From contig CBDDIW010000001.1 in the NCBI GenBank assembly GCA_965229245.1, forward strand, positions 650,372-714,371: 64,000 nucleotides of DNA. The letters run 5' to 3'. Shown piece by piece: positions 429 to 47,698 of the stretch. The notes beneath the pieces were generated by a model that was not told where the DNA came from, did no database searches, and saw only the letters and a program-made list of their open reading frames with translations. Position 1 is the stretch's first letter, and each line of letters begins with the position of its first letter. A program made the position numbers and the translations under genes. The DNA is from Verrucomicrobiales bacterium. Its GTDB lineage: Bacteria; Verrucomicrobiota; Verrucomicrobiia; Verrucomicrobiales; V1-33.

Positions 429-607
429 GACGGCAGAGGGTTGAGTGGCGTTTGTTGGTATTTTCTAAAATCTATTAATTACATTCAGCACCGGACCCGC
501 CGGAGTAAACCACGGTGAAATCCATTTACAGCAAGGCGTGAATTCATTTGATACTATTTTAAAGACGCGGACAGCAACCGGGACGCGTGGTCTTATCAGG
601 TGAATCA

Positions 608-813
608 GGCCCGGAGGGCCGCCGGAAATTAGCCGGTGGCGCAAGCCACCGGAAAGCTGAATAACAAACGCTCACAGCCCCGGAGGGGCGCTGGAATGTT
701 CGTCGCCCCGCATTCCCCAAGGGTTTCCATCGCCCCTGCCGGGGCTCCGAATCACTTGACGGAAGGTTCCGGTGGCTTGCGCCACCGGCTAATTTCCATC
801 GGCCCTCCGGGCC
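608..813. repeat. 206-bp element bounded by a 47-bp near-perfect inverted repeat (45/47); each arm holds a CCGGTGGC-GCAA-GCCACCGG hairpin with a GNRA tetraloop
   Basis: Left arm 608..654 is ggcccggagggccgccggaaattagccggtggcgcaagccaccggaa. The reverse complement of right arm 767..813 is identical except gccgcc versus gccgat. The element lies in the 450-bp gap between the DUF1549/DUF1553 gene and the DUF1501 gene. Confidence 0.7.
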
Positions 814-879
814 TTGCTCGTCCCTGACCTTCTCACGGACCATATAAGTTTCCTGTATATATTACCGGCTTTCCGGTAT

Positions 880-5018: not shown

Positions 5019-5164
5019 GCCCAAGGAGCGGCGACATTCCTGTCGCCGTCGAACTCAGCCGTTTGGTCACTCCTACTCAGAGTAAGAGTAAGAGCAGGAA
5101 CACGAACAGGAGGCACCAAACAGTTGAATCCCACGGCGACAGGAATGTCGCCGCTCCTTGGGGC
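5019..5164. repeat. REPIN (REP doublet forming a hairpin), copy 1
   Basis: Terminal arms cccaaggagcggcgacattcctgtcgccgt (5020..5049) and its perfect reverse complement acggcgacaggaatgtcgccgctccttgggg (5133..5163). Each arm carries the internal palindrome GGCGACA-ttcc-TGTCGCC. Intergenic. Confidence 0.8.
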
Positions 5165-15015: not shown

Positions 15016-15948
15016 ATGGCCCATATCACCTTCATTCATGGCATCTCCAATAAACCGGCGGCGGACCGGTTGTTGCGCATCTGGCTGGATTCCCTTACCG
15101 GGGGGACCGGCGGAATCGATCTGGACGCGGAAGGCGTCACCACTTCCATGATTTATTGGGCGGATGTTCTTTATCCGGAACCGGTCGCCGCGGAAGCCGA
15201 GTTCGTAAATGAAGCGAACACCGCGGAACTGCCCTCCGCCACCGATCCGAATATGAAATGGCGAGAGCATCTTTCCGGGGAGGAAAAAGCCATCACCGAC
15301 GCCCTGGCTGCCAAATTGAGCTTCGATGTGCTTACCGAGGACACCTATGTGCCACCGGTGACCGCGATGGATGCCCAGCTTGAACGAATTCCCCTCCCCT
15401 GGTTTGTAAAACGCCGGGTCATGAAGGAATTCCTTCGTGATGTCCATCACTACCTCTTTAACGAAACCTCCTCACCCCGGCCCGGAGTTTCCTATAAGGT
15501 AAGAGATGAAATCAGAAGTCGAACCATCGCCGCCCTCCAGGCAGGCTCCTCGAAACCGGGCCCGCACCTTCTCGTAAGCCACAGCATGGGGACAGTCATC
15601 GCCTACGATTGTCTCAAGCGGGTTCCGGAATGCCCGGCGGTGGATGGCCTGATGACTGTCGGAAGTCCTCTCGGGATTGATGAAATCCAGGACAAACTCA
15701 AGCCTGAATGGTCTCGCGCCAACGGCTTTCCCTCAAAAGTAAAAGGGGGATGGATCAATATTTATGACAGCCTCGACCCGGTCACGGGTTTTGACGGAAA
15801 CATTGCCAATGACTTCAAGAAAGACGGCCGTGAGGAAGTGGAGGTAATCAATGAACAGAACTACGGCGCCTGGCGGCATGATATCGTCAAGTACCTGGCG
15901 GGCACAAAGCTCCGGGCAAGCCTGGGACGTTTGCTTTCCGGCCTCTAA
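15016..15948 (+). CDS. alpha/beta-hydrolase fold protein, lipase/esterase-like (gene A of candidate three-gene system)
   Basis: 310 aa. ITFIHGI oxyanion-hole-like motif and LVSHSMGT nucleophile elbow (GxSxG). Candidate acid (IYDSLDP) and His (AWRHD) residues. GC is markedly lower than the flanks. Confidence 0.7.
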   Translation: MAHITFIHGISNKPAADRLLRIWLDSLTGGTGGIDLDAEGVTTSMIYWADVLYPEPVAAEAEFVNEANTAELPSATDPNMKWREHLSGEEKAITDALAAKLSFDVLTEDTYVPPVTAMDAQLERIPLPWFVKRRVMKEFLRDVHHYLFNETSSPRPGVSYKVRDEIRSRTIAALQAGSSKPGPHLLVSHSMGTVIAYDCLKRVPECPAVDGLMTVGSPLGIDEIQDKLKPEWSRANGFPSKVKGGWINIYDSLDPVTGFDGNIANDFKKDGREEVEVINEQNYGAWRHDIVKYLAGTKLRASLGRLLSGL

Positions 15949-15962
15949 CCCCCCCTCGACCC

Positions 15963-17612
15963 ATGGCGTGGAATTCGATTACCTTCAATCAGGAGCTGTC
16001 CTCTGCCGCCGGCACTTTTAATTTGGCCGCCGTCTCAGAGTTGTGCGGACAGTTAATCAAACACCTTAACGAAACAGGAGATCCTTATCCTTCAGATGAT
16101 GCCTCGGCGGCAATGTCAATCCTGCGCCGGAAAAGGTATTTCAGTCTCATGATGAAAGTAGGCGCGGCTTTTATGATGACGGGCCGCGCCTCCCTGAAAG
16201 TAATTCGTTTGTTTGCTCAGGCGCAGATCGATGACGGGGATGTCGCCGCCGGGTTGATCACTCTACATGATCTGGCCGCCAAGGCGGAGCTACTCGGGCA
16301 TCAAGGCGAATTGAACGAAGCCCGGGGCTTGATCGGCCGGGCGCATAAGCAGTATTATGTAACCACCGAAGGAAACGCCCCTCACCGGCTGGAACACTTG
16401 AAAAAGTCTCTGAAAGCCTATTTGGAGGTTTATAGCACGTTGCCGGAGAAATGCCTGTGGCACGGGATCAACAGCGTGGCTCTGCTCAGGCGGGCTGAGC
16501 GCGAATCCGTGGACTGTCCTGTTTTCGTGGATCCCGAAACCATCGCGAAACAGATTTTTTCCGTGATTTCCCACTTGAGAGAACCGGTGGAAGTGTGGGA
16601 TTGCGCCACCGCCATGGAAGCCAGCCTGGCTTTGGGGGATCTGAAAAATGCGGGGGCCTGGCTTGAACGGTATGTGGCTCATCCTGACGGGGACGCGTTT
16701 GAACTTGCCAGCACTCTGCGTCAGTTGGAAGAGGTCTGGCAACTGGACTCCGCGCAGGGAGCCGGGCAGTTACTGTTACCGGTTCTCCGGGCTCACCTTC
16801 TCGCGAAGGAGGGTGGAGCGGTGGATATGTCTCTTTCCGAAATGAGGAAATCCGCCGCGGTCTCCCCGCCCCAGGCGTCTGACTTTGAAAAGGTCTTTGG
16901 AACTGACTCCTATAAGGCGCTTGAATGGTTTCGCAAAGGATTGCGGCGGGCCAGGCTTGTGGGCCGCATCGGCAGAACCTCCACCGAGGGACACGGCACG
17001 GGTTTTGTCCTTCTGGGGAAGACGCTCTCTCCAGTGTGGGGCGAAAGTTCAATCCTTCTTACCAACAGCCATGTGGTTTCCGATAATCCGGAGATCTGCA
17101 AACAGGGGGCGCTCCACCCCTCGGAGGTAGTCGTCACCTTTGAGGCCCTTGGAAACGGGGAGGAATATACGGTGGACCTGCTTTGGACCTCCCCTCCCGA
17201 CAAACTGGACGCCACGGTTCTGCTCCTTAAGGATACCTCGAAGCTCGCCCCCCTTTTGACGGATGATCACGCGAAAATAGCGACCGGCCTGCCGCTACTC
17301 AATGATTACGCCCGTGTATATATTATCGGGCATCCCCAGGGAGGAGGCTTGAGTTATTCCCTCCAGGACAATCTGCTGCTGGATCACGAAGATCCTCTGC
17401 TCCACTACCGGGCACCCACGGACCACGGGAGTTCAGGCAGTCCGGTATTCAACGCCAACTGGGATTTCATCGGGCTCCACCATAAGGGCAGCGAGACCAT
17501 GCGGAGATTAAATAAAAAACCGGGCACCTACCCGGCGAACGAAGCCATCTGGCTTCAGGCTGTCATTTCTGAATTGAAAACCCATCCGCCGGCACCCCCG
17601 GCCTCCACTTGA
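15963..17612 (+). CDS. trypsin-like (chymotrypsin-fold) serine peptidase with an about 330-aa N-terminal alpha-helical (TPR-like) domain (gene B)
   Basis: 549 aa. The C-terminal about 200 aa carry His (LLTNSHVV), Asp (DKLDATVLLL) and Ser (DHGSSGSPVF) in canonical order and spacing. The N-terminal region is predicted helical with no recognised motif. Starts 14 bp after gene A. Confidence 0.75.
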   Translation: MAWNSITFNQELSSAAGTFNLAAVSELCGQLIKHLNETGDPYPSDDASAAMSILRRKRYFSLMMKVGAAFMMTGRASLKVIRLFAQAQIDDGDVAAGLITLHDLAAKAELLGHQGELNEARGLIGRAHKQYYVTTEGNAPHRLEHLKKSLKAYLEVYSTLPEKCLWHGINSVALLRRAERESVDCPVFVDPETIAKQIFSVISHLREPVEVWDCATAMEASLALGDLKNAGAWLERYVAHPDGDAFELASTLRQLEEVWQLDSAQGAGQLLLPVLRAHLLAKEGGAVDMSLSEMRKSAAVSPPQASDFEKVFGTDSYKALEWFRKGLRRARLVGRIGRTSTEGHGTGFVLLGKTLSPVWGESSILLTNSHVVSDNPEICKQGALHPSEVVVTFEALGNGEEYTVDLLWTSPPDKLDATVLLLKDTSKLAPLLTDDHAKIATGLPLLNDYARVYIIGHPQGGGLSYSLQDNLLLDHEDPLLHYRAPTDHGSSGSPVFNANWDFIGLHHKGSETMRRLNKKPGTYPANEAIWLQAVISELKTHPPAPPAST

Positions 17613-17618
17613 TTTCCT

Positions 17619-18998
17619 ATGCAACCTCTTGAGATCGCACCGGCCCCTCCCGCTACTCCGGCTCCCGTTAATGTCACTTATCCGCTGAAGATCTTTCTCA
17701 GCCACAAACTGGGCCCATCCAAAGCGAAAGCGGAGCGGATCGCCGCGGCTCTGTCGCTTTTTGCCGGGGATAAACTCAGGATCACTTGCTCAGCCACGTT
17801 TGCCAAGGGCATTGACTGGGAGGAGACTATAAAGAGGGAATTGAAAGCCGCCCATTGGTTTATTCTGATCTATGACGGACCTGACGTGAACCACGACTGG
17901 TGCCTTTTTGAGGCGGGCTTTTTCCTTGCCAACGATCCCGGCAGGAAATTGATCTGCCTTCATGATCCAAGACACAGTCTGCCTCCTCCTTTGAGACAAT
18001 TTGTGGACGTGCCCGCCCGTGCCGAAGAGGTCATGAGCCTGTTCCAGGAAATTTATTTCAATCCTCCATGGGCGATCAAACCGGAACTGCTGCTGGCAAA
18101 TGGCCCTCTTCCCGATTATGTCAACCGCATCGTAAAGGAGATCAATGGCCAGGATATTCTTTCTCAATTCACCCTCTCCCCCACCTTTACTTTCCAAATA
18201 AGGAACGAAAACATTTCCCTGCTGAGTGAAGGCATTATCGACGACAACGCCGAGATCAGTGGAGACGGTGCCTGGGAAGCCATATTTGGAAAACCGGATG
18301 CCACCATCTCGTGGACATGGAAAGGCATCACCGACGGATTAGATGACTGGCAGGCATGGGCATACCAGCTCGCGGGCATGATGGCCGAGGCGATCACCAC
18401 AATATCCGTGAACAACCCCTCGACAGCATTGCGCGTACGCCTTAAAAACGGACAGGAATCTATTTACAGAGTCCTGATCCGGCGCATGGAGAGAACAACG
18501 GAAGCATACCGGTTCACCTTCGGAGCCGCTGAGATTGTGACCTCATACCGTCCGGGGGACGCGGCAAGCCGGACGAAAATATTTCATCTTTATAACCTCG
18601 CATGGTTTTTCAAAGAAAATTTCCTGAAGACTCATCTCGCCGCGCTTGAAGAGCAGGTTCTCATGAAGGCTCTTCCTCCGGACTTTCTCCCCAAAAGGAT
18701 CAAAAATATCCGGGATGACCTTAAAGCCCTGCACGCTGAAGCCCAGGTTCGGGGCATAGAAGACAATGCCCGGGTGGTCAATGCTTTCCGACCGGAGTTG
18801 AGGGCTCCGGTGGCAGCCGCGTTGCAGGAAACCTGGCCCTTGCTCGACCAGGCTTTGCAGGAGGCCTGCTCCGCGGCAAAGCCGTCGCTGACCGCCCTGA
18901 TCAAGGCACTGAGGGAGATGAAGCCCATCAACACTTTTTTTCTGAAGAGTTGCCTTGAAGAATTGCAGGTTCTCGAAGAACTCCCTGGCGCGGGGTGA
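17619..18998 (+). CDS. TIR-domain protein with an about 280-aa C-terminal domain of unknown function (gene C)
   Basis: 459 aa. Residues about 20-180 have the KIFLSHK beta-A motif and a W-C-L-F-E-A-G motif matching the conserved (S)xWCxxE of TIR domains, which contains the catalytic Glu. Starts 6 bp after gene B. Confidence 0.7.
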   Translation: MQPLEIAPAPPATPAPVNVTYPLKIFLSHKLGPSKAKAERIAAALSLFAGDKLRITCSATFAKGIDWEETIKRELKAAHWFILIYDGPDVNHDWCLFEAGFFLANDPGRKLICLHDPRHSLPPPLRQFVDVPARAEEVMSLFQEIYFNPPWAIKPELLLANGPLPDYVNRIVKEINGQDILSQFTLSPTFTFQIRNENISLLSEGIIDDNAEISGDGAWEAIFGKPDATISWTWKGITDGLDDWQAWAYQLAGMMAEAITTISVNNPSTALRVRLKNGQESIYRVLIRRMERTTEAYRFTFGAAEIVTSYRPGDAASRTKIFHLYNLAWFFKENFLKTHLAALEEQVLMKALPPDFLPKRIKNIRDDLKALHAEAQVRGIEDNARVVNAFRPELRAPVAAALQETWPLLDQALQEACSAAKPSLTALIKALREMKPINTFFLKSCLEELQVLEELPGAG

Positions 18999-19067: not shown

Positions 19068-20507
19068 GTGGGCGCTCTTCCCCTCCCCTCTACCGTGAAC
19101 CGATTTGCCACCCGCGGCTCCGCCACTCCCCCCGTGTTTGTCTTCGCGGGAATCGTGGGACTAAGCATTGTCTTTTTCCTCCTCTTCTCCGCCAAAAACC
19201 TGTTCCGGAAAGACCCGCCGCCGGATTCCGGGACCGCGCCGGTCACCGCCTCCACCACGACCACCCCGCCGGAGAAGGAAACCGCCGGGAAGCCGGGGGA
19301 CGGCACCGCGGGGAAAGCCGCCGGAAAGCCGGAGACCAGCCCGCCTGGAGAGGATCCCGCCGGGAAGCCACATGCCGCCTACTTCACTACCGCGGAGGCC
19401 GTGCTGAAGGATCTCACCAGCCGCCTCCGGAGCGGACGCACGGAGGACCTGACAAAAACCGCGGGCGGCGGACCGCGGGTGGATTTCCTGCATCAACTGC
19501 TCACCAAAGCGGGCTGGACGCTTCCGGAGGGGGAACCGTGGTCGGATGAGGGCGCCATGACCGGCGTGAACCGCTATGGCTTGAAACTGGAGCCCTCCTC
19601 CCCCGCCGTGCCCCTGCCTGCCGGTCCCGTCATGGCGGACGTGGAGCGCACCAAAACCGAGGGCTGGAAGCTGCGCGGGCTGCGCTTCGATCCCGCCCTG
19701 GTGGATCAGGCGGTGCTGCTGCTGAAGGACGCGGGCATCACCGTGGAGCCCGCCCCGCTGCGGGACGCGGCGGACCCGCTGGACCTCGCACACCGGTTTT
19801 TCGATGGCGTGCTGGGCCACGATTTCAAATCCGCCCGGAGTCTCACGGACCACGCGAAGGTCACCCACGAACGGCTGGCCGGCATGTGCATCGTCTTTGA
19901 GGAGGGGGAATACTACATCGCCGCGAAACGACCTATCGTCATCACCGCCGGCACGGCGGACAAGGCGTGGGCCATCGTGAAGATCCGCTCGGACAAGCAG
20001 AATCTGGACGCGGAGGTGGGTCTGGAGATGGACCGGAACGCAGCCGGCGCGTGGGTCATCCAGGCACTGGATTTTACCAACATGCTGGAGAGCTATGTGA
20101 AGGCCACGAATACCGGGAACGTCTTCTATTCCCCCGTGGTGAAGTCCGCGAAGGGCGGCGAGAGCATCGTGCTTTACTTCGAGTTCGACAAATCCGCGCT
20201 CCATCCCCGCGCGCTGCGGCAACTGGACATCATCGCCAGCCTGCTGAAGAGCGACCCCGCCCGGAAGATGCGCATCACCGGCCACAGCGACGCCCTGGGG
20301 CGGGACTCCTACAATGTGAAGCTCTCCACCGCCCGCGCGAAAAATGTGCGTACGCGCCTGCTTGAACTCGGCGTCTCGGCCACCCAGATTGACACCCAGG
20401 GAGTGGGCTCCATCGCCCCTCTCGATCCCGACCGGCGGGAGGACGGCTCCGATAACCCGGATGGCCGCTCCCGGAACCGCCGCACGGAAATCTACCTCGA
20501 CTTCTAA
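19068..20507 (+). CDS. OmpA-family (OmpA/MotB C-terminal peptidoglycan-binding domain) protein with TM anchor and Pro/Thr/Gly-rich linker
   Basis: 479 aa, GTG start. N-terminal TM helix, low-complexity PPPDSGTAPVTASTTTTPPEKETAGKPG linker, C-terminal OmpA-like domain ending NRRTEIYLDF. Confidence 0.7.
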   Translation: MGALPLPSTVNRFATRGSATPPVFVFAGIVGLSIVFFLLFSAKNLFRKDPPPDSGTAPVTASTTTTPPEKETAGKPGDGTAGKAAGKPETSPPGEDPAGKPHAAYFTTAEAVLKDLTSRLRSGRTEDLTKTAGGGPRVDFLHQLLTKAGWTLPEGEPWSDEGAMTGVNRYGLKLEPSSPAVPLPAGPVMADVERTKTEGWKLRGLRFDPALVDQAVLLLKDAGITVEPAPLRDAADPLDLAHRFFDGVLGHDFKSARSLTDHAKVTHERLAGMCIVFEEGEYYIAAKRPIVITAGTADKAWAIVKIRSDKQNLDAEVGLEMDRNAAGAWVIQALDFTNMLESYVKATNTGNVFYSPVVKSAKGGESIVLYFEFDKSALHPRALRQLDIIASLLKSDPARKMRITGHSDALGRDSYNVKLSTARAKNVRTRLLELGVSATQIDTQGVGSIAPLDPDRREDGSDNPDGRSRNRRTEIYLDF

Positions 20508-20516
20508 ACACCCCAC

Positions 20517-21044
20517 ATGTTCCTTCGTTTTGTCCCCGTTATCGCCTGCGCGGTCGCATTCTCCGGCTGCAAACGCCACACGGTCATAGATCCCGCCGAT
20601 CTGCAAACCCCCGCAGCGGAAGCCGCGCTGCGCTACGTCATCGACCACAGCCCCCGGAGGAAAGACGCAAAGCTGGCAATTATCTGCATCGGGGATGCTC
20701 CTATGAGTCCTGCCACCGAAGAATTTGAGGCACGGTTCAAAGACATTCCCGGTCTGGAGTTTATCAACTTTCTGAGGATGGAACATGGCATGTATAATGG
20801 AAAACCCCGACGCTGGGACTTCCAGACAAAGAAATTCGTGCTGGAGGTTCAGATCAGTGCCCTCACGCCTTTTAAGGACGGACGGGCGGAGGCCATCGCG
20901 GCATGGGCGTATGAGGATGACGCGGAGCGCTACCGGCTGAGGATTCTGGAAAAAGCGGGCGGCGGCTATGACGTGAAAGAACTGGAGACCATTCCTGTTT
21001 CCAATCGCAACGACGACCGGAGCAGTGTCACGAAGGGCAAGTGA
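20517..21044 (+). CDS. hypothetical lipoprotein
   Basis: Signal peptide with lipobox AFSGC, 175 aa. Confidence 0.5.
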   Translation: MFLRFVPVIACAVAFSGCKRHTVIDPADLQTPAAEAALRYVIDHSPRRKDAKLAIICIGDAPMSPATEEFEARFKDIPGLEFINFLRMEHGMYNGKPRRWDFQTKKFVLEVQISALTPFKDGRAEAIAAWAYEDDAERYRLRILEKAGGGYDVKELETIPVSNRNDDRSSVTKGK

Positions 21045-22077
21045 ATCGCCTCCGCCCCTGGAGGCCGGGGAGCTGGCGGCCTTTCGCGGGGCGCTGGTAG
21101 CGTGGTTCCGGCGGGAGGGCCGGGACTATCCCTGGCGGCGCACGCGGGACCCGTATGCCATCCTGGTCTCGGAGGTCATGCTCCAGCAGACGCAGATCGC
21201 CACCGTGCTGGGGCGGGGCTACTACGCGCGGTGGATGGAGCGCTTCCCGGACGTGGCCGCGCTGGCGCGTGCCGGGGAGACGGACGTTCTCCAAACCTGG
21301 GAGGGGCTGGGCTACTACAGCCGGGCGCGGAATCTCCAGCGCGCCGCCGCGGCGGTGGTGCGGGAGCACGGCGGCGTCTTCCCTTCCGAACCCGCCGCCG
21401 TGGCCGCGCTGCCGGGCGTGGGACGTTACACGGCGGGAGCGGTGCTCTCCTTTGCCTACGGCCAGGCGGCCCCCATCGTGGATGGAAACGTGGCCCGCGT
21501 GCTGGCCCGGCTGTTTGCCCTGCGGGAGGAGATCGATACCCCGCGCGGCCAGACGCTCCTGTGGGCGTGGGCCGCGGCACTCACGGACCCCGCGCATCCC
21601 CGGGAGTATAACAGCGCCATCATGGAGCTGGGCCAGCGGATCTGCACTCCGCGCCGTCCCGCCTGCGGGGAGTGTCCGGTGAAAACCTGGTGCCGCTCCG
21701 CCGGACCCGGTGCGGAGGCCCTGCCGCTGAAGAAGCCCGCGCGTTCCACGGTCTTCATGGAGGAGCACGTCCTCTGGGCCTGGCGCGGGGACAGTCTGCT
21801 GCTGCGGCTGGAGACGGGCCGCCGCCGCCAGGGACTTTGGCGGCTGCCAGAGCGCACGCCCGCCGAGATCAGCGGCCTGCCTCTGCTCAGCCGCACACGG
21901 TATTCCATCACCCACCACCGGGTGACGCTGCTGGTTTACGATGCCGGGGCCATCCGCGCCCGGGAGGACGAGGAATGGCAGCCCGCGTCCCAACTGGCCG
22001 CCCTGCCCATGCCCGGCCCGTTCCGGAAAGTGGTGGATACCCTGCTGGGGGAGGCCCGGGAGTTCCGGCTGGCTTGA
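21025..22077 (+). CDS. mutY: A/G-specific adenine DNA glycosylase MutY
   Basis: HhH-GPD region (ILVSEVMLQQTQ, LPGVGRYTAGAV), 4Fe-4S loop CTPRRPACGECPVKTWC and a C-terminal NUDIX-like domain. Confidence 0.85.
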   Translation: MSRRASESPPPLEAGELAAFRGALVAWFRREGRDYPWRRTRDPYAILVSEVMLQQTQIATVLGRGYYARWMERFPDVAALARAGETDVLQTWEGLGYYSRARNLQRAAAAVVREHGGVFPSEPAAVAALPGVGRYTAGAVLSFAYGQAAPIVDGNVARVLARLFALREEIDTPRGQTLLWAWAAALTDPAHPREYNSAIMELGQRICTPRRPACGECPVKTWCRSAGPGAEALPLKKPARSTVFMEEHVLWAWRGDSLLLRLETGRRRQGLWRLPERTPAEISGLPLLSRTRYSITHHRVTLLVYDAGAIRAREDEEWQPASQLAALPMPGPFRKVVDTLLGEAREFRLA

Positions 22078-22142
22078 GAAACCGGGGCGGCGGTTTTCAA
22101 TGAGGGGTGTCCGGCTAACTGATTCCAGGGTGGAGATGGAAA

Positions 22143-22269
22143 CCCAAGGAGCGGCGACATTCCTGTCGCCGTCTGGAAATCATCCGTTAGGCCCTTCGAT
22201 TTCGACAGGCCAGGCTCTTGTTCTCCATCGAAGAGCTCACGGCGATAGGAATGTCGCCGCTCCTTGGGG
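22143..22269. repeat. REPIN, copy 2
   Basis: Left arm cccaaggagcggcgacattcctgtcgccgt (22143..22172). Right arm acggcgataggaatgtcgccgctccttgggg (22239..22269) is its reverse complement with one mismatch. The copy is itself flanked by an inverted GTGTCCGGCTAAC motif. Confidence 0.8.
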
Positions 22270-22444
22270 CCTGGCCGTCCCGGAAAACGACATCGCATCG
22301 GCACGCACTACAGAAACCGGTTAGCCGGACACCAGTGATTTCAAACCGCCGCCACGGGAGTTCCCACGTTTGCGGGTCTTTCGCGCGCTTTAGGCGGCAC
22401 GGTGTGCCGGTCTCTTGTCTCACCCCCATTTCACAAATCCCCCC

Positions 22445-25400
22445 ATGATTCTGAAGCTCCTCCCCGCCATTGTCCTGCTGCCCTCGTTTCTTCACGCCCG
22501 CCCGTTTGAGAATATGTCGAGTGACGGCAAAACCCCGGATGGCTGGGAGGGAAACCCCGCGTGCTGGCGGGTGGCGGATGGCATCCTCACCGGGGAGATC
22601 AAGGAGGGCACCACCCTGGACCGCAATGAATGGTTCTTCATGAACCAGGAGACGGGGGACTTTGAATTGACCGTGGAATACCGCATCACCGGCGGCCCCA
22701 CCGCCAACAGCGGCATCCAGATCCGCAGCCGGCGGGATGCCAAAGGCCAGGCCAGCGGGCTCCAGTGTGATCTGGACGATGGCAAGGAATGGCTGGGCCG
22801 CATCTATGATGAGCACGGGCGCGCGCTGGTGATGGAGCGGGGCACGCGCGTGTCCATCGCCCCGGACGGCCGCCGCTGGGCAGATCCCTTCGCGGACCCG
22901 AAGTCCTTCACAAAAATCGCGAAGAAGGATGACTGGAACACCTATCGCATCAAGGCCACCGGCTCCCACGTGCAGGTCTGGATCAACGGTGTCTTCTTTG
23001 GCGCGCTGGATGACCACGAGTCGAAGGCGGCGGAATACAGCGGGAAAATCGCCTTCCAGCTCCACGCCGGGGCGGGTCCGGCGAAGGTGGAATTCCGGAA
23101 CTTCAATCTTCTGGACAAAGGAAAGACCGACCCGCCCGCGGGAGCCAAAACCGTGGCCGAAGACAAACCGGACGACGTTTTCCACCCCTCCAGCGCGGAC
23201 GGCAAGCCGCTGAATCTCGGCTTTGAAAAAGGGAATCTGGATGGCTGGACCGCGGAGGGTGATGCCTGGGAGAGCCAGCCCATCAAGGGCGACACCGTGT
23301 CCCCCCGGAAGCCGGGGCAGGCCAGCCGCCACGCGGGGCAATACTGGATCGGCGGCTACGAGCCGAAACTGACGGATGCCGGCACGGGCAAGCTGACCTC
23401 CGTCCCTTTCGAGGTGACGCATCCCTGGGCCAGCTTTCTCGTGGGGGGCGGTGGCGAGGTGGCCTCCGTGCGGGTGGAGATCGTGGACGCGGAGACGGGG
23501 AAAATCTTCCACACCGCCGCTGGGCGCTTTGAGGAGGACATGCACCGGGAGGTGGTGGATATGCGGCCCATGAAGGGGAAGAAGGTTTTCCTCCGCCTCA
23601 TCGACCGCGCGAAAGGCGGCTGGGATCACCTGAACTTTGACGACTTCGCCTTCCACAACGAACCACCGGCGAAGGCCGTGGCGGAGGGCAGCCGCCAGAC
23701 GCAGAGCCCCGTGCTCTGGCACCTCCAGCCGAATCCCGCGAAGCCCACCGCCATTCAAAATCCGGAGGCGCAAAAGACCGTGGCCACCATGATGCTCACC
23801 AGCGGCTTCCAGGCGGAACTCATCGCCGCCGAGCCGGAGGTGCGCCAGCCCATCGCTTTCACCATCGACGAAAAAGGACGCCTCTGGATTCTGGAGGGCT
23901 ACAGCTATCCTAACAAACAACCGGAGGGCCAAGGGAAGGACCGGATCATCGTGCTCTCGGACCAGGATGGGGACGGGGTGTTCGAGACCCGCCGGGTCTT
24001 CGCGGAGGGGATCAATCTGGGGAGCGGCATCGAGGTGGGGTTCGGCGGGGTCTTCGTGGGCGCGGCCCCGGAGCTGCTGTTCTTCCCCGCCAGCACCCGG
24101 GACGACCAGGTGGCCGCCGGGCCGCCGAAGGTGCTCCTGGACGGCTGGGGCTATCAGGACACGCACGAGACCCTGAACAGCTTTTCCTGGGGGCCGGACG
24201 GCTGGCTCTACGGCTGCCATGGCGTCTTCACCACCTCCTATGTGGGCAAGCCGGGAACCGCGAAGGAAGGGCGCGTGCCGCTGCACGCGGGCGTGTGGCG
24301 CTACCACCCGGTGAAGGGGGAATTCGAAGTCTTCGCCCACGGCGGGAGCAATCAATGGGGGCTGGACTACAATGAAGCCGGCGACCTTTTCATGACCCAC
24401 TGCCGGAGCTTTTTCGGCGGCGGCGGCACCACCTATGTCATCCGCAACGGGCACTACTGGAACCAGGCGAACGCTGGCTACGCGCCGTTCATTTCCAACA
24501 GCGGCCCGGACTTCGCCCCGGACCTGAAGAACTACCTGCCCGCCGCCGCGCTCTATGACAGCGGCGAGGGTGGCGCGGGAAAACCCGGCACCACGGCCAT
24601 CTATGGCGGGCACTCCCACGTGGGCACCATGATTTACCAGGGCACGAACTGGCCGGAGATCTACCGGGGCCACCTTTTCACGCACAATCTCCACGGGCAC
24701 CAGATGAACCACCAGGAGAACGTGCGGTCCGGCTCCGGCTATGAGACCATGCACGCCGGGGCGGATCTCCTCCACGCGCCGGACCCCCGCTACATGGCGG
24801 TGGACCTCCAGAGCGGCCCGGACGGAGCGGTCTATACCATCGACTGGTTTGACCAGCAGCACTGCCACACACCCATCGAGGAAAAGTGGGACCGGAGCAA
24901 CGGGCGGGTGTATCGCGTCTCATGGGCGGCCACCTACAAACCGGTGAAAGTGGATCTCTCGGGGGAAAGTGATGAAGCCCTCGCGAAGCTCCAGAATCAC
25001 GCGGACGAATGGTACCGCCGTAACGCCCGCCGCCTGCTCATGGAGCGCGCGGCCACGCGTCCCCTGGATGAGCGGGCTGTCCCGGTACTCCGTGACCTGG
25101 CGGGTAACGCCGGGATGGAGCCATCCTTGCGCGGCCTGTGGACCCTCGCGCAGTGCAATCTTCTGACAAAGCGGGAGATCACGCTCGCGGCCCGCAATGA
25201 CAACGCCCCCACCCGCGCCTGGGCCGTGAGGCTGGCCACGGAAAAGGGAGCGAAGGATCTGCTGGATCCCGCGATCCTCCTGAAGCTGGCGAAGGAGGAT
25301 CCCGCGCCCGCCGTGCGCCTGGCCCTCGCCTCCGGCCTGCCCTCCCTGCCAAATGACCAATGCTGGGAAATCGTGACCGCGCTCGCCGCCCACGTCGAAG

Positions 25401-26656
25401 ACGATAAAGACCGTTTCCTGCCGAAGCTCATCTGGACCGGATTCGCCCCCGTGGCGAAAACCGACTGGCCGCGCGCCCTCGCCCTGGCCGCCACCACCCC
25501 GCTGCACGAGCTGGCGGACAGCATCCGCTGGTATGCCGCGCAGGACGCCGCCGGGCGTGAAGCCCTGGCCTCCGCCGCCGCCGGACAATCCGCCATCAAA
25601 GCCGGCCGCGCGGTGAGGATCGCCGCCTTTGCCCTGCGGGACGAGGCCACGCTCACTCCTCCCGCCTCCGCGGAGGCCGCCATGAAAGCCCTGGGCGAAA
25701 ACCCGGAACCCGCCGTGCTGGCCGCCGCGAATGAGCTGGCCGCCACCTTTGGCGACAAGGACGTGCTGGGCCGCATGCGCGCGGTGCTCGCGGATGCGAA
25801 CGCGCCGCTGGGAGAAAGGAAGTCCGCCTTTGCCCTGCTGAAGCGCACCGGGGATAAAGAGGCCCTGGGGGTTTTTGCCACCCTGCTGGATAACGCGGCT
25901 TTCCGCTCCGCCGTCATCCCGCTCCTGGGCCGGAGCGACGACCCCGCGGTGGCCACCGCCCTGCTGGAACGGTATGCGAACCTCTCCGTGAATGACCGCA
26001 ACGCGGCGCTCGCCGCCCTGACCAGCCGCGCCCCGTTGGCGCTCACGCTGGTGAAGGCCATGGCCGCGGGCACCTTTGACAAGAAGCAGCTCACGGCGGT
26101 GCACATCCGCCAGATGCGGAATCTCGGCAGCGCGGAGCTGAACACCCTGCTCGAAAAGACCTGGGGGAAATTCAATCCGTCCTCCGAAGCCTCCAAAGCC
26201 ACGATCGCCAAATTCAAGAAGCTTTACAACGAGGCCCCGCTCTGGGCCTACGATGCCGGGAAGGGCCGCGAGGTCTTCACCCGCGTGTGCGGCGCGTGCC
26301 ATGCCTATGGCCAGGGCGAGGCCCGCGTTGGGCCCAACTTGGGAGGCACCTGGCGCAATGGCGTGGACTACTTCCTAGAGAACATCGCGGACCCGAACGC
26401 GGTCATTGGCGATGACTTCCAGCTCACCATCATCACGAAAAAGGATGACACCGTGTATGCGGGGATCGTGGAAAAAGAGACGGACACCGCGGTGGTGCTG
26501 CGGACACTCACGGAATCTGTTAGTATCCCGAAAGCGGATAATAATATCAAATCCCGTGAGAAACTGCAACAAAGCCTCATGCCGCCGGGCCTTTTGGAGT
26601 CCATGTCGGAGCGGGAAGCCCTTGAGTTGTTGAAGTTCCTGTCCACACAGCAGTAA
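22445..26656 (+). CDS. large exported fusion protein: DUF1080 (3-keto-disaccharide hydrolase-like) domain, then PVC-type membrane-bound-dehydrogenase beta-propeller with HEAT repeats, then C-terminal CxxCH cytochrome c domain
   Basis: 1403 aa from ATG 22445 (signal peptide MILKLLPAIVLLPSFLHA). DUF1080 block (WRVADGILTG, IAFQLHAG), long helical repeat region, heme motif VCGACHAYG and C-terminal LMPPGLLESMSEREALELLKFL, typical of the Planctomycetes/Verrucomicrobia heme-binding dehydrogenase family. Confidence 0.8.
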   Translation: MILKLLPAIVLLPSFLHARPFENMSSDGKTPDGWEGNPACWRVADGILTGEIKEGTTLDRNEWFFMNQETGDFELTVEYRITGGPTANSGIQIRSRRDAKGQASGLQCDLDDGKEWLGRIYDEHGRALVMERGTRVSIAPDGRRWADPFADPKSFTKIAKKDDWNTYRIKATGSHVQVWINGVFFGALDDHESKAAEYSGKIAFQLHAGAGPAKVEFRNFNLLDKGKTDPPAGAKTVAEDKPDDVFHPSSADGKPLNLGFEKGNLDGWTAEGDAWESQPIKGDTVSPRKPGQASRHAGQYWIGGYEPKLTDAGTGKLTSVPFEVTHPWASFLVGGGGEVASVRVEIVDAETGKIFHTAAGRFEEDMHREVVDMRPMKGKKVFLRLIDRAKGGWDHLNFDDFAFHNEPPAKAVAEGSRQTQSPVLWHLQPNPAKPTAIQNPEAQKTVATMMLTSGFQAELIAAEPEVRQPIAFTIDEKGRLWILEGYSYPNKQPEGQGKDRIIVLSDQDGDGVFETRRVFAEGINLGSGIEVGFGGVFVGAAPELLFFPASTRDDQVAAGPPKVLLDGWGYQDTHETLNSFSWGPDGWLYGCHGVFTTSYVGKPGTAKEGRVPLHAGVWRYHPVKGEFEVFAHGGSNQWGLDYNEAGDLFMTHCRSFFGGGGTTYVIRNGHYWNQANAGYAPFISNSGPDFAPDLKNYLPAAALYDSGEGGAGKPGTTAIYGGHSHVGTMIYQGTNWPEIYRGHLFTHNLHGHQMNHQENVRSGSGYETMHAGADLLHAPDPRYMAVDLQSGPDGAVYTIDWFDQQHCHTPIEEKWDRSNGRVYRVSWAATYKPVKVDLSGESDEALAKLQNHADEWYRRNARRLLMERAATRPLDERAVPVLRDLAGNAGMEPSLRGLWTLAQCNLLTKREITLAARNDNAPTRAWAVRLATEKGAKDLLDPAILLKLAKEDPAPAVRLALASGLPSLPNDQCWEIVTALAAHVEDDKDRFLPKLIWTGFAPVAKTDWPRALALAATTPLHELADSIRWYAAQDAAGREALASAAAGQSAIKAGRAVRIAAFALRDEATLTPPASAEAAMKALGENPEPAVLAAANELAATFGDKDVLGRMRAVLADANAPLGERKSAFALLKRTGDKEALGVFATLLDNAAFRSAVIPLLGRSDDPAVATALLERYANLSVNDRNAALAALTSRAPLALTLVKAMAAGTFDKKQLTAVHIRQMRNLGSAELNTLLEKTWGKFNPSSEASKATIAKFKKLYNEAPLWAYDAGKGREVFTRVCGACHAYGQGEARVGPNLGGTWRNGVDYFLENIADPNAVIGDDFQLTIITKKDDTVYAGIVEKETDTAVVLRTLTESVSIPKADNNIKSREKLQQSLMPPGLLESMSEREALELLKFLSTQQ

Positions 26657-26682: not shown

Positions 26683-27903
26683 ATGTTTACCCGCCGCCGC
26701 TTTCTCGCCGTTTCCGCCGCCACCGCCGCCCTGCCCCGTTTCTCCCGTGCCGCCGGGAATCCGGCCCTGGAGGAAAAGCTGGCGGGCATCGTGGACAGTT
26801 ATCTGAAGGATCGCGAGATCCCCGGCGGGCAACTGGCGCTGCTGAAGGAAGGCCAGGTGGTGTTTTCCCGCGCCTTCGGCATGGCGGACCGGGATAAAAA
26901 AGTGGCGGTGACACCGCGCACGCTCTTCCGCATCGCCAGCGTTTCCAAACCCCTCACCGCCGCCGCCATCCTCGTGCTGGCGGAGGAGGGGAAACTCTCG
27001 CTGGACGCGAAGATGCTGGACGTGCTGATGGTGGACATCTTCCTGCCGGAGGGGAAGAAGATGGACCCGCGGGTGAAGGACATCACCCTGCGGCACCTGC
27101 TGCAACACACCGCCGGCTGGGACCGCAACAAGAGCGGGGACATGATGTTCGAGAGCAAAAAGATCGCGAAGACCCTGGGCATCCCCTGCCCTCCCGGGCC
27201 CATGGACGTGATCCGCGAAGTGCTGGGCCGTCCGCTGGATACGGACCCGGGAGCGAAGTATGCCTACTCGAACTTCGGCTACTGCGTGCTGGGCCGCATC
27301 GTGGAACAGGTGAGCTGCATGCCGTATGAGAAGTTCGTGCAGGAGCGCGTGCTGAAGCCCGCCTCCATCAGCGGCCCCCGCGTGGGTGCCACGCTCACCC
27401 AGGGCGAGGGCGAGACCCGCTACTACACGCCGAAGCCCGAGGACGAGGAGCCCGTGTTCCCGAACCTCCCGGACAAAGTCCCCTCCCCCTACGGCGGCTG
27501 GTGCCTGGAAACGATGGATTCCCACGGCGGCTGGATCGCCGCGGCGGAGGACATCGCGAAGTTTGCCGCCAGCCTGCCGGATATCGGGGGCATTTCGCCG
27601 TTCAAGAAAAAGGAGACGTGGGAGACGCTCATCGCGCCGCCCGCCGGGCCGGTGGGGTATGAGAAGGACGGGAAAGTGAAACCCGTGAGCTACGGCTGTG
27701 GCTTCCAGATCCACCGCGAGGAAAAGGGAGCGGGCATCGAGCACAGCGGCAGCCTCCCCGGCACCACCACCTTTGTCTGGCGCCGCCCGGACGGCTACAC
27801 CTGGGCCGCGTTTTTCAATATGCGCCACGACGGCCGCAGCAACAAGGACGCCTCCGTGGTGGCCCAGTTGAACAAGGCTCTGGACGAATCCGCGAAGGGC
27901 TGA
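26683..27903 (+). CDS. Tat-exported serine hydrolase of the beta-lactamase/transpeptidase-like family
   Basis: 406 aa. Twin-arginine signal MFTRRRFLAVSAATAAL. SxxK (ASVSKP), YxN (YSNFGY) and HxG-like (HSGSLPG) motifs. Confidence 0.8.
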   Translation: MFTRRRFLAVSAATAALPRFSRAAGNPALEEKLAGIVDSYLKDREIPGGQLALLKEGQVVFSRAFGMADRDKKVAVTPRTLFRIASVSKPLTAAAILVLAEEGKLSLDAKMLDVLMVDIFLPEGKKMDPRVKDITLRHLLQHTAGWDRNKSGDMMFESKKIAKTLGIPCPPGPMDVIREVLGRPLDTDPGAKYAYSNFGYCVLGRIVEQVSCMPYEKFVQERVLKPASISGPRVGATLTQGEGETRYYTPKPEDEEPVFPNLPDKVPSPYGGWCLETMDSHGGWIAAAEDIAKFAASLPDIGGISPFKKKETWETLIAPPAGPVGYEKDGKVKPVSYGCGFQIHREEKGAGIEHSGSLPGTTTFVWRRPDGYTWAAFFNMRHDGRSNKDASVVAQLNKALDESAKG

Positions 27904-27965
27904 GGAAAGGAGCGGGGATTTTTATCTGAAGTGTCCGGCTAACACTTTTTGTGGTTTCGTCCGTT

Positions 27966-28012
27966 GCTCAGGCAATGGCATCCGGCGCCCCGCCGGATGC
28001 CATTGCCTGAGC
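27966..28012. terminator. perfect 22-bp-stem hairpin between convergent genes (putative bidirectional intrinsic terminator)
   Basis: gctcaggcaatggcatccggcg-ccc-cgccggatgccattgcctgagc. Lies between the beta-lactamase-family gene (+) and pdxA (-). No obvious U-tract, which is common in high-GC genomes. Confidence 0.45.
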
Positions 28013-28110
28013 CTGGGGCTCTCCGCGCGAGAAATCCCTGCGACGGACGACACCATAAAAAGGGTCAGCCGAACACTGATGATTTCCAATCCGCGCTCCA
28101 GGGAAACGTT

Positions 28111-28998
28111 TTAAATCCCGGGCCTCGATTTGCTCAACTCCGCCGCGAGATTGATGGCCGCGATCATGCTTGTGGCGGAGGCTTTCCCCTGCCCCGCGAT
28201 GTCGAAGGCGGTGCCGTGGTCCGGGCTGGTGCGGGTGTGGGGCAGACCCAGGGTCACGTTCACCGCACTGTCAAAGTCCAGCAGCTTCAGCGGGATCAAT
28301 CCCTGGTCATGATACATACAGAGCACGGCGTCCCACGCCCCACGCGCGGCATGGTAGAAGAGGGTATCCGGTGGCTGGGGCGCGGAAAAGACCACGTCCG
28401 GCAGCAGGCGGCGCAGTTCCTCCACCGCCGGGCGGATCACCGCCGCGTCCTCCGTGCCCATGTGTCCGTCCTCTCCCGCGTGGGGATTCAGCCCCGCGAC
28501 CGCGATCCGGGGACATGCCTTGCCGCGCCTTTTCAGAAACTCCGCGAGCAGTCTGCCCGTGCGGATAATGCCCTCCGGCGTGATCAGATCCGGCACGCGC
28601 CGCAGGGGCTCGTGGATGGTGACCAGCCCCACGGTGAGACGCGGACCGGTGAGGCACATGACAAAATCCTCCACCCCCAGGCGGTCTGCATAGAACTCCG
28701 TCTGTCCGGGAAAAGGAAATCCCAAGTCCGCCAGGGACGCCTTGCAGACCGGGGCCGTGACCACTGCCGCGATGCCTCCACTCCTCAGGAGCGCTGCGGA
28801 TTCCTCCAGGGCCTCCAGCGCGGCGCGCGCGCCCCGCGCATCCGGCTTCCCGGGCCGCGCGCCCGGACAGGACCCGATGACCCGGTAGTCACACTCAGGG
28901 TCCAGTTCGCCGGAGGCCAGCGCCGCCGCCGTCACCTCCGGGCCGATGCCCGCGGGATCGCCGAGGGTGATGCCGATGACAGGCCGGAGCCCGTTCAC
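28111..28998 (-). CDS. pdxA: 4-hydroxythreonine-4-phosphate dehydrogenase PdxA family
   Basis: 295 aa. IGITLGDPAGIGPEV N-terminus, NPHAGE and HGTAFDIAG motifs. 4-bp overlap with the upstream surA-like gene, as in the surA-pdxA arrangement of other bacteria. Confidence 0.8.
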   Translation of the reverse strand: MNGLRPVIGITLGDPAGIGPEVTAAALASGELDPECDYRVIGSCPGARPGKPDARGARAALEALEESAALLRSGGIAAVVTAPVCKASLADLGFPFPGQTEFYADRLGVEDFVMCLTGPRLTVGLVTIHEPLRRVPDLITPEGIIRTGRLLAEFLKRRGKACPRIAVAGLNPHAGEDGHMGTEDAAVIRPAVEELRRLLPDVVFSAPQPPDTLFYHAARGAWDAVLCMYHDQGLIPLKLLDFDSAVNVTLGLPHTRTSPDHGTAFDIAGQGKASATSMIAAINLAAELSKSRPGI

Positions 28999-30482: not shown

Positions 30483-30977
30483 GGCCGGACTTTCCGCCGC
30501 CGTCCGGGCCTGTCAATGAACTTGCCCGCCGCCCCGCGACCGCGACGGCGGGGCTGGCTTTATGCCCGTGAAATAAATATCAGCCTCATGGTGAGGCAGT
30601 TGTGACACAGCCATTTGCATTCCTGAAATCCCGTGCATTCTTTGGTTAGTTCTTTGTCAGCTTAATGTCCCGGCTTCGCCGCCGGGACAGCGGGGGACCC
30701 AAAAATTCCCAAACCCGTCAGGGCCGGCTCATTTGCCGGCAGACTCGGGGCGCATGACGCCTGCGGCGTCAGGGGCACCACGGTGGCCTCAGCCCGACAG
30801 CTAACCTCGCCTGCCCACACCGGGAGACATTTCGGAACGCGCTCATCCTTCTGTGAAAGTGAAGGAGGGGAGGCGGCCAGAGGCCTTCCCCTTCAGAGAA
30901 TACCGGACGCGCGCAAGCCCCGCAGGCGAGGCGCGTCCTCTCAAAACACCCATAAAAACACAGGAGGATAATCATCT

Positions 30978-33093: not shown

Positions 33094-33228
33094 CCCAAGG
33101 AGCGGCGACATTCCTGTCGCCGTCCTCATGACGAGTCTCCGGAATGACTTCAAAGACAAGCTTCAGGGTAGTAGAGGACGACCAGTTAGAAGAACTGACG
33201 GCGACAGGAATGTCGCCGCTCCTTGGGG
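33094..33228. repeat. REPIN, copy 3 (immediately 3' of the RAYT gene)
   Basis: Arms 33094..33123 and 33198..33228 are perfect reverse complements of each other and match the consensus of copies 1 and 2. Confidence 0.8.
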
Positions 33229-33260: not shown

Positions 33261-33917
33261 TCAAACGGGGGGCGCCTCAAGGATTGAGCGGACTTCATCG
33301 CTCAAATAAAGAGTATAGTCCCCTTCACGCAGTCTGGCCTTTACCGGGTTTCTCCGGATGTAACGCACGCAATTCCAAAAATGGGTTTTATCCCGCACCA
33401 GCCTGTCGAAGTAATCCTTTTGCCAGAAGCCTCCATCACCTGATACCCGTGGAGATACCAGCCTGGCGGCGCGAGCGGAAGCTCCCTTCCAGGCTTTGAG
33501 CAGGGTTTCCAAACGAACGTTTTCCTGAAGGGAAAACAGCAGATGAGCATGATTCGGCATCAGGACCCAGGCGTGATGCCGGTAGCGCCCGTCATCATAT
33601 TTTATAAAAATGTTCTCCACGGCGTCCCGGACTTCCGGATGACGCAGCAGGCATTCACCATGGCAGTCGTCCAGCCAGCGTTCGAGCCTGCTGGAAAACC
33701 GCTCGTGATATTCCGCCTCCTGTGCCGCTGACCATGGTTCAGGATTCCATTTCAGCCAGAGATCACGTTCCCCATGCCACTGGGCGATGAGCGCGTGAGG
33801 GAGGGAGTCCGCGAGACGGAATGTGAGGAAATAGGTGGCTCCCGGCTGATCCCAGTGGGTAAGGCGATTAGTCCCTACAAGAGTGTCGGTCCATGGATTG
33901 AAGTATTTCAGGTCCAT
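33261..33917 (-). mobile_element. REP-associated tyrosine transposase (RAYT; IS200-like Y1 HUH transposase)
   Basis: 218 aa. HUH motif MPNHAHLLF and catalytic Tyr region YIRRNP. The gene is flanked on both sides by REP sequences of the same family found elsewhere in the window. Confidence 0.75.
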
Positions 33918-33969: not shown

Positions 33970-33999
33970 ACGGCGACAGGAATGTCGCCGCTCCTTGGG
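33970..33999. repeat. solo REP (single arm) 5' of the RAYT gene
   Basis: acggcgacaggaatgtcgccgctccttggg, identical to the REPIN right arm, followed by tandem cgttatg(a/t)gg units that also follow REPIN copy 3. Confidence 0.75.
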
Positions 34000-47604: not shown

Positions 47605-47698
47605 GCAGTATGACTATGGGAATTTCCGTTCCCAAGGGCCTTTTGAGCGTTTGTGTTGGGGCTTGACGCCTTTGCCGCTTCGGAGTGAATTCGCTCCC

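Follow-up and report, generated by a model that had tools for sequence, protein, structure and literature searches.

A REPIN nested within a second long palindrome, a candidate MITE-like repeat, in a member of the Verrucomicrobiales

INTRODUCTION

Among the palindromic repeats described in bacteria, two kinds are closest to the locus reported here. Miniature inverted-repeat transposable elements (MITEs) and related palindromic repeats include ERIC/IRU of enterobacteria, Correia/NEMIS of Neisseria, RUP, and Nezha. Repetitive extragenic palindromic (REP) sequences form the REP doublets forming hairpins (REPINs) that are associated with REP-associated tyrosine transposases (RAYTs) (Bertels & Rainey 2011, PMC3116915; Nunvar et al. 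2010). Here we analyze a stretch of 64,000 nucleotides (nt) from a Verrucomicrobiales bacterium (assembly GCA_965229245.1, contig CBDDIW010000001.1, positions 650,372 to 714,371), referred to below as the window, in which a REPIN lies within a second inverted repeat. We term the outer element pal; the copy that contains the REPIN is pal1, and the second copy, pal2, is located 5.5 kb away. The reading that we favor, with somewhat more confidence than doubt, is that of two palindromic non-coding elements that are unrelated and differ in age; pal would be a MITE-like repeat into which the REPIN was inserted later.

The inner element is a textbook member of the REPIN/RAYT system. The outer element has the REPIN-like layout of two inverted arms plus a spacer; unlike REPINs, however, its arms lack a conserved REP-type stem-loop, its copies are about 60 to 80% alike, and no RAYT flanked by pal arms was found in the window. 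Like the MITEs and palindromic repeats listed above, pal is about 150 bp long, non-coding, and imperfectly palindromic, with long terminal inverted arms. In common with them, it is intergenic and located beside coding ends, would form a stable hairpin if transcribed, can hold internal insertions, and is found at rearrangement points. It differs from these elements in that it has neither a demonstrable target-site duplication nor a known parent insertion sequence (IS), in that two diverged copies were seen, and in that its conserved block lies 22 to 25 nt inside the arms and not at their tips.

The nested architecture is not new, since REP dimers inside longer palindromes have been described for GTAG-15 of Anabaena variabilis, CGTC-1 of Halothiobacillus neapolitanus, and GTAG-23 of Thermomicrobium roseum (Di Nocera et al. 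2013, PMC3733652). The association is regular in A. variabilis, where it involves many dimers, and in H. neapolitanus, where it involves all dimers; REP-free target palindromes were not found in these two species, whereas hundreds of free short targets are present in T. roseum (PMC3733652). As in these cases, the REP dimer analyzed here occupies the center of a longer palindrome. In contrast to A. variabilis and H. neapolitanus, two of the three REPINs in the window lie outside such a palindrome, and one copy of the outer palindrome is free of REP sequences. Composite units flanked by MITEs are also known, for example, the integron mobilization units located between two MITE copies. Similarly, two palindromic copies of the same orientation bracket a block of genes in the window, with neighbors unlike those in relatives; unlike such composites, there is no evidence that this block moved as a unit, the pal copies are diverged, and no duplication flanks the whole unit.

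RESULTS

The REPIN is nested in a 276-bp palindromic structure

The inverted-repeat search revealed that the outer element, pal1, has 43-nt arms (22082-22124 and 22315-22357) that are 81% complementary, and that the whole nested structure spans 276 bp. An initial annotation had placed the REPIN within a second inverted repeat upstream of a 4.2-kb gene for a heme-binding protein; this nesting was confirmed, whereas the extent of about 215 bp assigned to it was too small. The left arm, L1 (22082-22124, plus strand), starts 4 nt past the stop codon of mutY (22075-22077) and comprises a G-rich block, a T-run, and then the 13-mer GTGTCCGGCTAAC at 22107-22119. It is followed by the inner-left backbone (22125-22142, plus strand; delimited from the sequence and the backbone alignment), the REPIN, and the inner-right backbone (22269-22314, plus strand), which begins with GCCTGG and aligns weakly with positions 28011-28061 of pal2. 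The right arm, R1 (22315-22357, minus strand), contains the 13-mer at 22320-22332, and the distance from the end of pal1 to the ATG of the heme-protein gene is 88 nt. A small CCG..CGG stem is present in L1 and R1 only, and no hairpin is kept across all four pal arms. With the REPIN included, the pal1 region folds as a single long RNA hairpin (-164 kcal/mol, z -11.8).

The inner element (REPIN copy 2, 22143-22268) consists of two 30-nt REP arms (22143-22172 and 22239-22268) that are separated by a 66-nt spacer and differ by one mismatch (97%), as annotated initially. Each REP arm contains the stem-loop GGCGACA-TTCC-TGTCGCC. The 30-nt arm CCCAAGGAGCGGCGACATTCCTGTCGCCGT is present in seven copies in the window, as three inverted doublets and one singlet, against 0 expected. 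Apart from the nested copy, the arm search located REPIN copy 1 (5020-5162), which has the same 30-nt arms and neither a 13-mer nor an outer inverted repeat around it, REPIN copy 3 (33094-33227), and the REP singlet (33970-33999). Copy 3 and the singlet flank a RAYT gene on the minus strand (33261-33917; NF047646 REP_Tyr_transpos, 82.8 bits with a cutoff of 80; PF01797 Y1_Tnp, 35.6 bits). The spacers vary among the REPIN copies, the shared sequence being limited to the arms and the adjoining 25 nt or so on their inner side. The segment 22143-22268 thus shows inverted arms, stem-loops, repetition, and an REP-flanked RAYT, all of which characterize REPINs. Judging from this arrangement, the RAYT is likely the mobilizer of the nested REPIN, acting in trans. 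The REPIN arms are 97 to 100% alike between copies and the pal arms about 60 to 80%, which argues that the REPIN is the younger element and was inserted into a pre-existing pal.

A second palindrome without REP contains the same 13-mer

The second palindrome, pal2 (27909-28099), fills the gap between two convergent genes, encoding a serine hydrolase and PdxA; its start is 5 nt away from the stop codon of the hydrolase gene (27901-27903), and its end is 11 nt away from that of pdxA. It is composed of nested inverted repeats, namely, an outer pair of 12 nt (27909-27920/28088-28099, 92%) and an inner pair with 38-nt arms (27930-27967/28040-28077, 84%). The left arm, L2, together with the inner-left backbone, covers 27909-27965 (plus strand) and contains the 13-mer at 27931-27943. 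The center is occupied by a module (27966-28012) that forms a perfect 22-bp hairpin with a 3-nt loop and was found by the repeat search to have no other copy in the window. A loop or bulge (28013-28039) and the right arm, R2, follow (28013-28099 in total, minus strand), the latter containing GTGTTCGGCTGAC at 28064-28076. There is no REP in pal2, and the region folds as a single long RNA hairpin (-124 kcal/mol, z -11.6). The terminator hairpin that had been annotated behind the hydrolase gene turned out to be the perfect 22-bp apex of pal2 (27966-28012), which has no T-tract behind it.

In the window, GTGTCCGGCTAAC occurs exactly at 22107-22119 (plus strand), 22320-22332 (minus strand), and 27931-27943 (plus strand). 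Two of these positions, 22107-22119 and 27931-27943, agree with the initial annotation; the reverse-complement copy had been placed at 22310-22322, which is 10 nt off. The third copy is not solitary; it belongs to the left arm of pal2 and has a partner in the right arm, the degenerate fourth 13-mer GTGTTCGGCTGAC (28064-28076, minus strand), which has 2 mismatches with respect to GTGTCCGGCTAAC. With at most 1 mismatch allowed, there were 3 matches in the window compared to 0.03 expected, and none of 100 shuffled sequences contained 3; the chance expectation for a given 13-mer in the window is about 0.002 to 0.03. All sites, i.e., the 3 exact ones and the one with 2 mismatches, fall in the arms of the two long inverted repeats, and no further 13-mer was found in the window.

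The 13-mer is the best-conserved block of the pal arms. Of 53 aligned columns, 23 are identical in three arms, and a run of 13 identical columns has a probability of 7e-5 in column shuffling; when any three of the four arms are allowed to agree, the same run has a P value of 0.05. Because conservation concentrates in it, the 13-mer appears as a constrained core in a decaying repeat. This pattern suggests that it is probably a recognition core for a protein that moves or binds pal.

pal1 and pal2 as probable copies of one asymmetric repeat

The REPIN-free pal1 aligns colinearly with pal2 with a score of 91.5, compared to 44 +/- 6 for shuffled sequences and 70 for the reverse orientation. Once both central modules were removed, the backbones of 158 and 154 nt were 63% identical (z 4.4). 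After the additional removal of the 13-mers, identity was 59%, with a z score of 3.3 in the same orientation and 0.2 in the reverse orientation. This directionality is illustrated by the arms outside the 13-mer. Arms of the same side resemble each other (L1-L2, 18/29; R1-R2, 20/31), as do the two arms within each palindrome (L1-R1, 19/29; L2-R2, 15/27), whereas cross-side comparisons are at chance level (R1-L2, 12/29; L1-R2, 15/30). The same-side likeness, combined with cross-side values at chance, is as expected for an asymmetric imperfect palindrome that was copied whole, and not for two palindromes or binding sites that formed independently. The two backbones by themselves also fold into long DNA hairpins (z -5.7 and -8.5).

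With a backbone of approximately 145 to 150 bp, no coding capacity, and inverted arms, pal has the size (70 to 300 bp) and arm structure of a MITE. No REP-type stem-loop is shared by its arms, which argues against the outer element being a REPIN. Of the explanations initially offered for the 13-mer, that of a second REP class fits best when taken as a second class of palindromic repeat, in view of the homology that extends over whole arms in one orientation. Candidate 3-nt repeats flank both copies (GAG...GAG for pal1 and AGG...AGG for pal2), with boundaries that were placed post hoc. A 10-nt direct repeat, CGGGAGTTCC (22057 and 22355), was considered as a target-site duplication of pal1 and rejected, as it is at chance level and does not adjoin the left arm. 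No tRNA or tandem repeats were found.

Position of the REPIN relative to the outer palindrome

The central modules of both copies occupy the same position in the backbone. The REPIN of pal1 is 23 nt from the left and 51 nt from the right 13-mer, and the hairpin of pal2 is 22 nt and 51 nt from them, respectively; directly 3' of the module, the backbone restarts with GCCTGG in both copies. The insertion point of the REPIN adjoins the apical loop of the folded pal hairpin.

The initial annotation had also considered the 13-mer as a target-site motif for REPIN insertion. As a general rule this fails, with pal2 free of REPIN and the 13-mer missing from both the other REPINs of the window and the REP loci listed from other genomes. 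Around REPIN copies 1 and 3 and the REP singlet there was neither a nearby 13-mer nor a flanking inverted repeat above chance, and the 13-mer was present in none of the 104 REP-bearing loci listed from other genomes (at least 39 assemblies). When flanking inverted repeats were scored for 61 REP doublets, the nested REPIN ranked first and most others were at control level; three with raised scores that were inspected (L009, L095, and L035) just had longer REPIN arms. Because the association is irregular and the outer palindrome occurs without REP, we consider REPIN and pal to be two independent elements.

Gene context and synteny

The plus-strand genes around pal1 are mutY, encoding an A/G-specific adenine glycosylase (21025-22077), on the upstream side, and a gene encoding a 1,403-amino-acid Planctomycetes-Verrucomicrobia-Chlamydiae (PVC)-type heme-binding CxxCH protein with DUF1080, DUF7133, HEAT, and cytochrome c domains (22445-26656). 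The latter is followed by the gene for the serine hydrolase of the beta-lactamase family (26683-27903, plus strand), pal2, the convergent pdxA gene (28111-28998, minus strand), and a gene for a SurA-like isomerase. Upstream, a gene for an OmpA-domain protein (19068-20507) precedes a 175-amino-acid open reading frame (ORF) and mutY. The top protein matches of these neighboring genes are in metagenome-assembled genomes (MAGs) of Verrucomicrobiales, and the closest relatives compared have 77 to 81% amino acid identity.

In all four relatives (L121, L113, L112, and L116/L117), an FtsJ-like gene comes within 2 to 3 nt of the hydrolase gene on its downstream side, a position from which the palindrome and pdxA are absent. 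The gene after mutY is a UPF0175 gene in L116/L117, where the hydrolase gene is found in divergent orientation upstream of the OmpA operon. L121 has a divergent gene and 350 nt free of pal and 13-mer ahead of the heme-protein gene; the region upstream of the heme-protein gene can be aligned between the window and this relative (79% amino acid identity) only from 22363, 5 nt past R1. Homology at the 3' end of the hydrolase gene ceases about 12 nt ahead of the stop codon. Orthologous intergenic DNA of the relatives could not be aligned, except for the proximal upstream part of the heme-protein gene. Since the neighbors differ in relatives, both pal copies are located at synteny breakpoints that bracket the heme-protein/hydrolase block. 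This coincidence is only suggestive, because breakpoints are common in the neighborhood, an example being the low-GC island upstream of the OmpA gene.

That island (15016-18998) is 4 kb long, has a GC content of 54 to 56% compared to about 64%, and immediately precedes the OmpA operon, a place that is taken by the hydrolase gene in relatives. It contains three plus-strand genes, which encode a 310-amino-acid protein of unknown function, a protein with TPR-S and a trypsin-like protease, and a TIR-domain protein, and it looks like an acquired defense-type island. Other features of the window include a c-di-AMP riboswitch of the ydaO/yuaA type (30649-30831, plus strand; 44.7 bits with a gathering score of 38) and a single 3,284-amino-acid ORF (47603-57457, plus strand) with gene-like codon GC (GC at third codon positions, 0.86).

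Searches for pal and REP sequences elsewhere

Paired 13-mers with a gap of 66 to 126 nt had 3 matches in metagenome contigs, all of which were the GTGTTCGGCTGAC variant in unrelated long palindromes at gene or contig ends and are therefore not informative on pal. Two metagenome loci, L118 (938-1083) and L120 (2469-2594), which came up solely through GTGTTCGGCTGAC, contain near-perfect long palindromes that include the last codons of a gene and are located at the extreme ends of short contigs; they are probably artifacts of fold-back during assembly. The scan of viral sequences returned 6 matches to the 13-mer, of which five had no inverted partner and one (L001) had a partner with 2 mismatches about 350 nt away; we take them as chance matches. 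BLAST of the pal arms against plasmid records gave only matches with E values of at least 0.4. At pal1 and pal2, no Rfam family reached its gathering score, and up to an E value of 5 there were only spurious matches of microRNA models to the perfect hairpin. No published account of the pal sequences was found in the full-text literature. So far, pal is thus specific to the source lineage, with the second copy 5.5 kb from the first.

Rfam identified two copies of the Acido-Lenti-1 motif in the window, at 607-654 (minus strand) and 767-814 (plus strand), with 46.6 and 45.6 bits, respectively (gathering score 37). The two form an inverted pair of 48 nt each, are 96% complementary and 112 nt apart, and thus resemble a REPIN-like doublet. 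This arrangement suggests that Acido-Lenti-1 may represent a repeat of the REP type and not an independent small RNA gene. A link between pal and Acido-Lenti-1 through the shared CCGGCTAA was dismissed, as it is only an 8-mer.

The REP sequences of the inner element are widespread. In a scan of one genome per species, the 24-nt REP core GGAGCGGCGACATTCCTNTCGCCG was present letter for letter in at least 104 loci of at least 39 species-level genomes, and the carriers include Chthoniobacterales, Verrucomicrobiales, Limisphaerales, Methylacidiphilum, Akkermansia, Prosthecobacter, a Tichowtungia MAG, and an "Aminicenantes" MAG. REP sequences are usually regarded as lineage-specific, and the identity of the core across the phylum was therefore unexpected. 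At one locus (L051), a RAYT homologue with 68% nucleotide identity is located between two REPs. In a Methylacidiphilum MAG (L030, 5867-6116), three REP cores of the same orientation follow each other with a regular period of 113 nt, a tandem arrangement unlike the inverted doublets observed elsewhere. On its inner side, the REP stem is followed by CGTC (GCCGTC in all left arms and CGTC or CGTG in right arms), and these REPs flank a RAYT gene; CGTC-tagged REPs have been reported without a dedicated transposase (Di Nocera et al. 2013, PMC3733652).

DISCUSSION

The structure is ordinary bacterial junk or selfish DNA. In the reading that we favor, pal would be a directional, imperfectly palindromic intergenic repeat with side-specific arms of about 45 nt, non-autonomous, presumably mobile, and copied as a whole unit. 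Several observations weigh against this view. Homology between pal1 and pal2 beyond the 13-mer is modest (59%, z 3.3), and the similarity of their inner segments is marginal (34/57, P about 0.03). Mobility and copy number have to be judged from two copies that are both located within the 64-kb window; neither of them has a clear target-site duplication, and the window contains no parent IS or transposase with matching ends. A hidden Markov model built from the four pal arms had no further matches, whether in the window or in 783 kb of loci from other Verrucomicrobiota, and neither a pal-like sequence nor the 13-mer was present at orthologous positions in the relatives. Given these absences, the pal family may be very small or consist of just two local copies.

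Several rival explanations were considered. The 13-mer pairs may be cis-acting protein sites of the heme-protein/hydrolase operon, that is, operators or inverted repeats of invertible segments. Invertons that depend on the same recombinase usually have a short core in common within otherwise different inverted repeats, and it would agree with this idea that the 13-mer is far better conserved than the remaining arm sequence, that the pal loci bracket exactly one two-gene block, and that pal1 ends 88 nt before an ATG. However, pal2 lies between two convergent stop codons with no downstream gene to regulate, the similarity runs over side-specific arms of about 45 nt and the backbone and thus exceeds what an operator needs, the neighboring ORFs examined include no recombinase or regulator gene, and relatives have the same operon without the motif. 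The 13-mer is, moreover, neither palindromic nor a direct repeat, and a LexA-like or other palindromic operator was rejected for the former reason. We therefore consider such sites unlikely, and the regulator-binding site proposed in the initial annotation is disfavored by the location of pal2 between convergent genes and the span of the similarity. Alternatively, the long hairpins may be RNA structures selected by the host, which, behind mutY and the hydrolase gene, would serve as 3' untranslated region (UTR) stabilizers or as bidirectional terminators of an unconventional kind and would owe their likeness to this common role. Each palindrome begins 4 to 5 nt past a TGA codon that terminates a plus-strand gene, the space between two convergent genes is taken up by pal2, and the RNA folds are very stable (-164 and -124 kcal/mol, z about -12); if transcribed, the pal loci would be predicted to form very stable 3'-UTR or intergenic hairpins, which may affect the transcripts. 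Function alone, however, leaves the identical 13-mer and the side-specific arms unexplained, there is no U-tract after any stem on either strand, the terminator scan flagged neither palindrome, no Rfam family matched, and relatives do not have such a structure after the same genes. This explanation is accordingly improbable to us; an intrinsic terminator in particular was rejected for lack of a U-tract, and both strands have their T-runs 5' of the stems.

The remaining rivals concern the origin of the palindromes and their relation to the REPIN. The RAYT may recognize the 13-mer or the outer hairpin, the outer palindrome then being either the place where the REPIN preferentially inserts or a component of a composite REPIN. 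REP dimers are regularly found inside longer palindromes in A. variabilis and H. neapolitanus (PMC3733652), the REPIN is located near the apex of pal1 with another palindromic module at the same backbone position of pal2, and the nested REPIN has the strongest flanking inverted repeat of the 61 tested. On the other hand, copies 1 and 3 and the singlet have neither the 13-mer nor an above-chance flanking inverted repeat, none of the 104 listed REP loci from other genomes contains the 13-mer, pal2 is without REP, and the raised scores of L009, L095, and L035 only reflect longer arms, so that we give this proposal little credence. The resemblance of GGCTAAC/GTTAGCC to the core sites RYYYAAC/GTTRRRY raises the idea of integron-like attC sites that bound a gene cassette: each core is one position off consensus, and both palindromes follow directly on stop codons, in the same orientation and at synteny breakpoints. 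Yet pairing continues for about 25 nt beyond the cores, unlike in attC sites, the right core of pal2 reads GTCAGCC, no integrase gene is among the neighboring ORFs examined, and the genes of the supposed cassette are ordinary vertical orthologues. Moreover, cassette logic predicts that R1 matches L2, and this comparison was at chance level (12/29), whereas L1-R1 agreed at 19/29. With cassette-wise pairing failing and pairing running outside the cores, we regard attC sites as already refuted and assign them a negligible probability. It is also very unlikely that the 13-mer coincides by chance in two unrelated intergenic palindromes. The two palindromes represent only two independent occurrences, and a 43-nt arm offers about 31 different 13-mers, which speaks for chance; nevertheless, chance would place a given 13-mer in the window only about 0.002 to 0.03 times, and the palindrome in which it recurs is another long inverted repeat, where it takes the corresponding place in the arm and is surrounded by colinear, side-specific similarity.

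If pal is a MITE-like repeat into which the REPIN was inserted later, the position of the REPIN suggests how this may have happened. The REPIN would insert near the apex of pal1, where a single-stranded pal hairpin exposes its loop. RAYTs are members of the IS200/IS605 HUH/Y1 transposases, whose substrate is single-stranded DNA, and insertion at the apex is for this reason a sensible mechanism. As modeled on the folded hairpin, REPIN insertion may thus have been directed to the apex. A more far-reaching scenario, in which the 5.5-kb block was relocated as a pal-flanked composite or translocatable unit and the pal apex is a hotspot for single-strand-specific insertion, strikes us as rather doubtful.

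To our knowledge, it is not yet understood how REPINs choose their insertion sites. Homologous hosts with different palindromic modules at one position amount to a small natural experiment on REPIN insertion and, if the pal apex is indeed such a hotspot, would provide evidence from nature that exposed hairpin loops receive REPINs through the action of RAYT-type (HUH/Y1) enzymes. The pal copies at breakpoints add a data point on small palindromic repeats that mark or mediate changes of gene order in Verrucomicrobiota. Taken together, the locus documents an older and a younger generation of palindromic intergenic repeats, the younger lying within the older, in an under-studied phylum, the phenomenon itself being ordinary; the phylum-wide conservation of the REP core may matter more than the nested palindrome itself.

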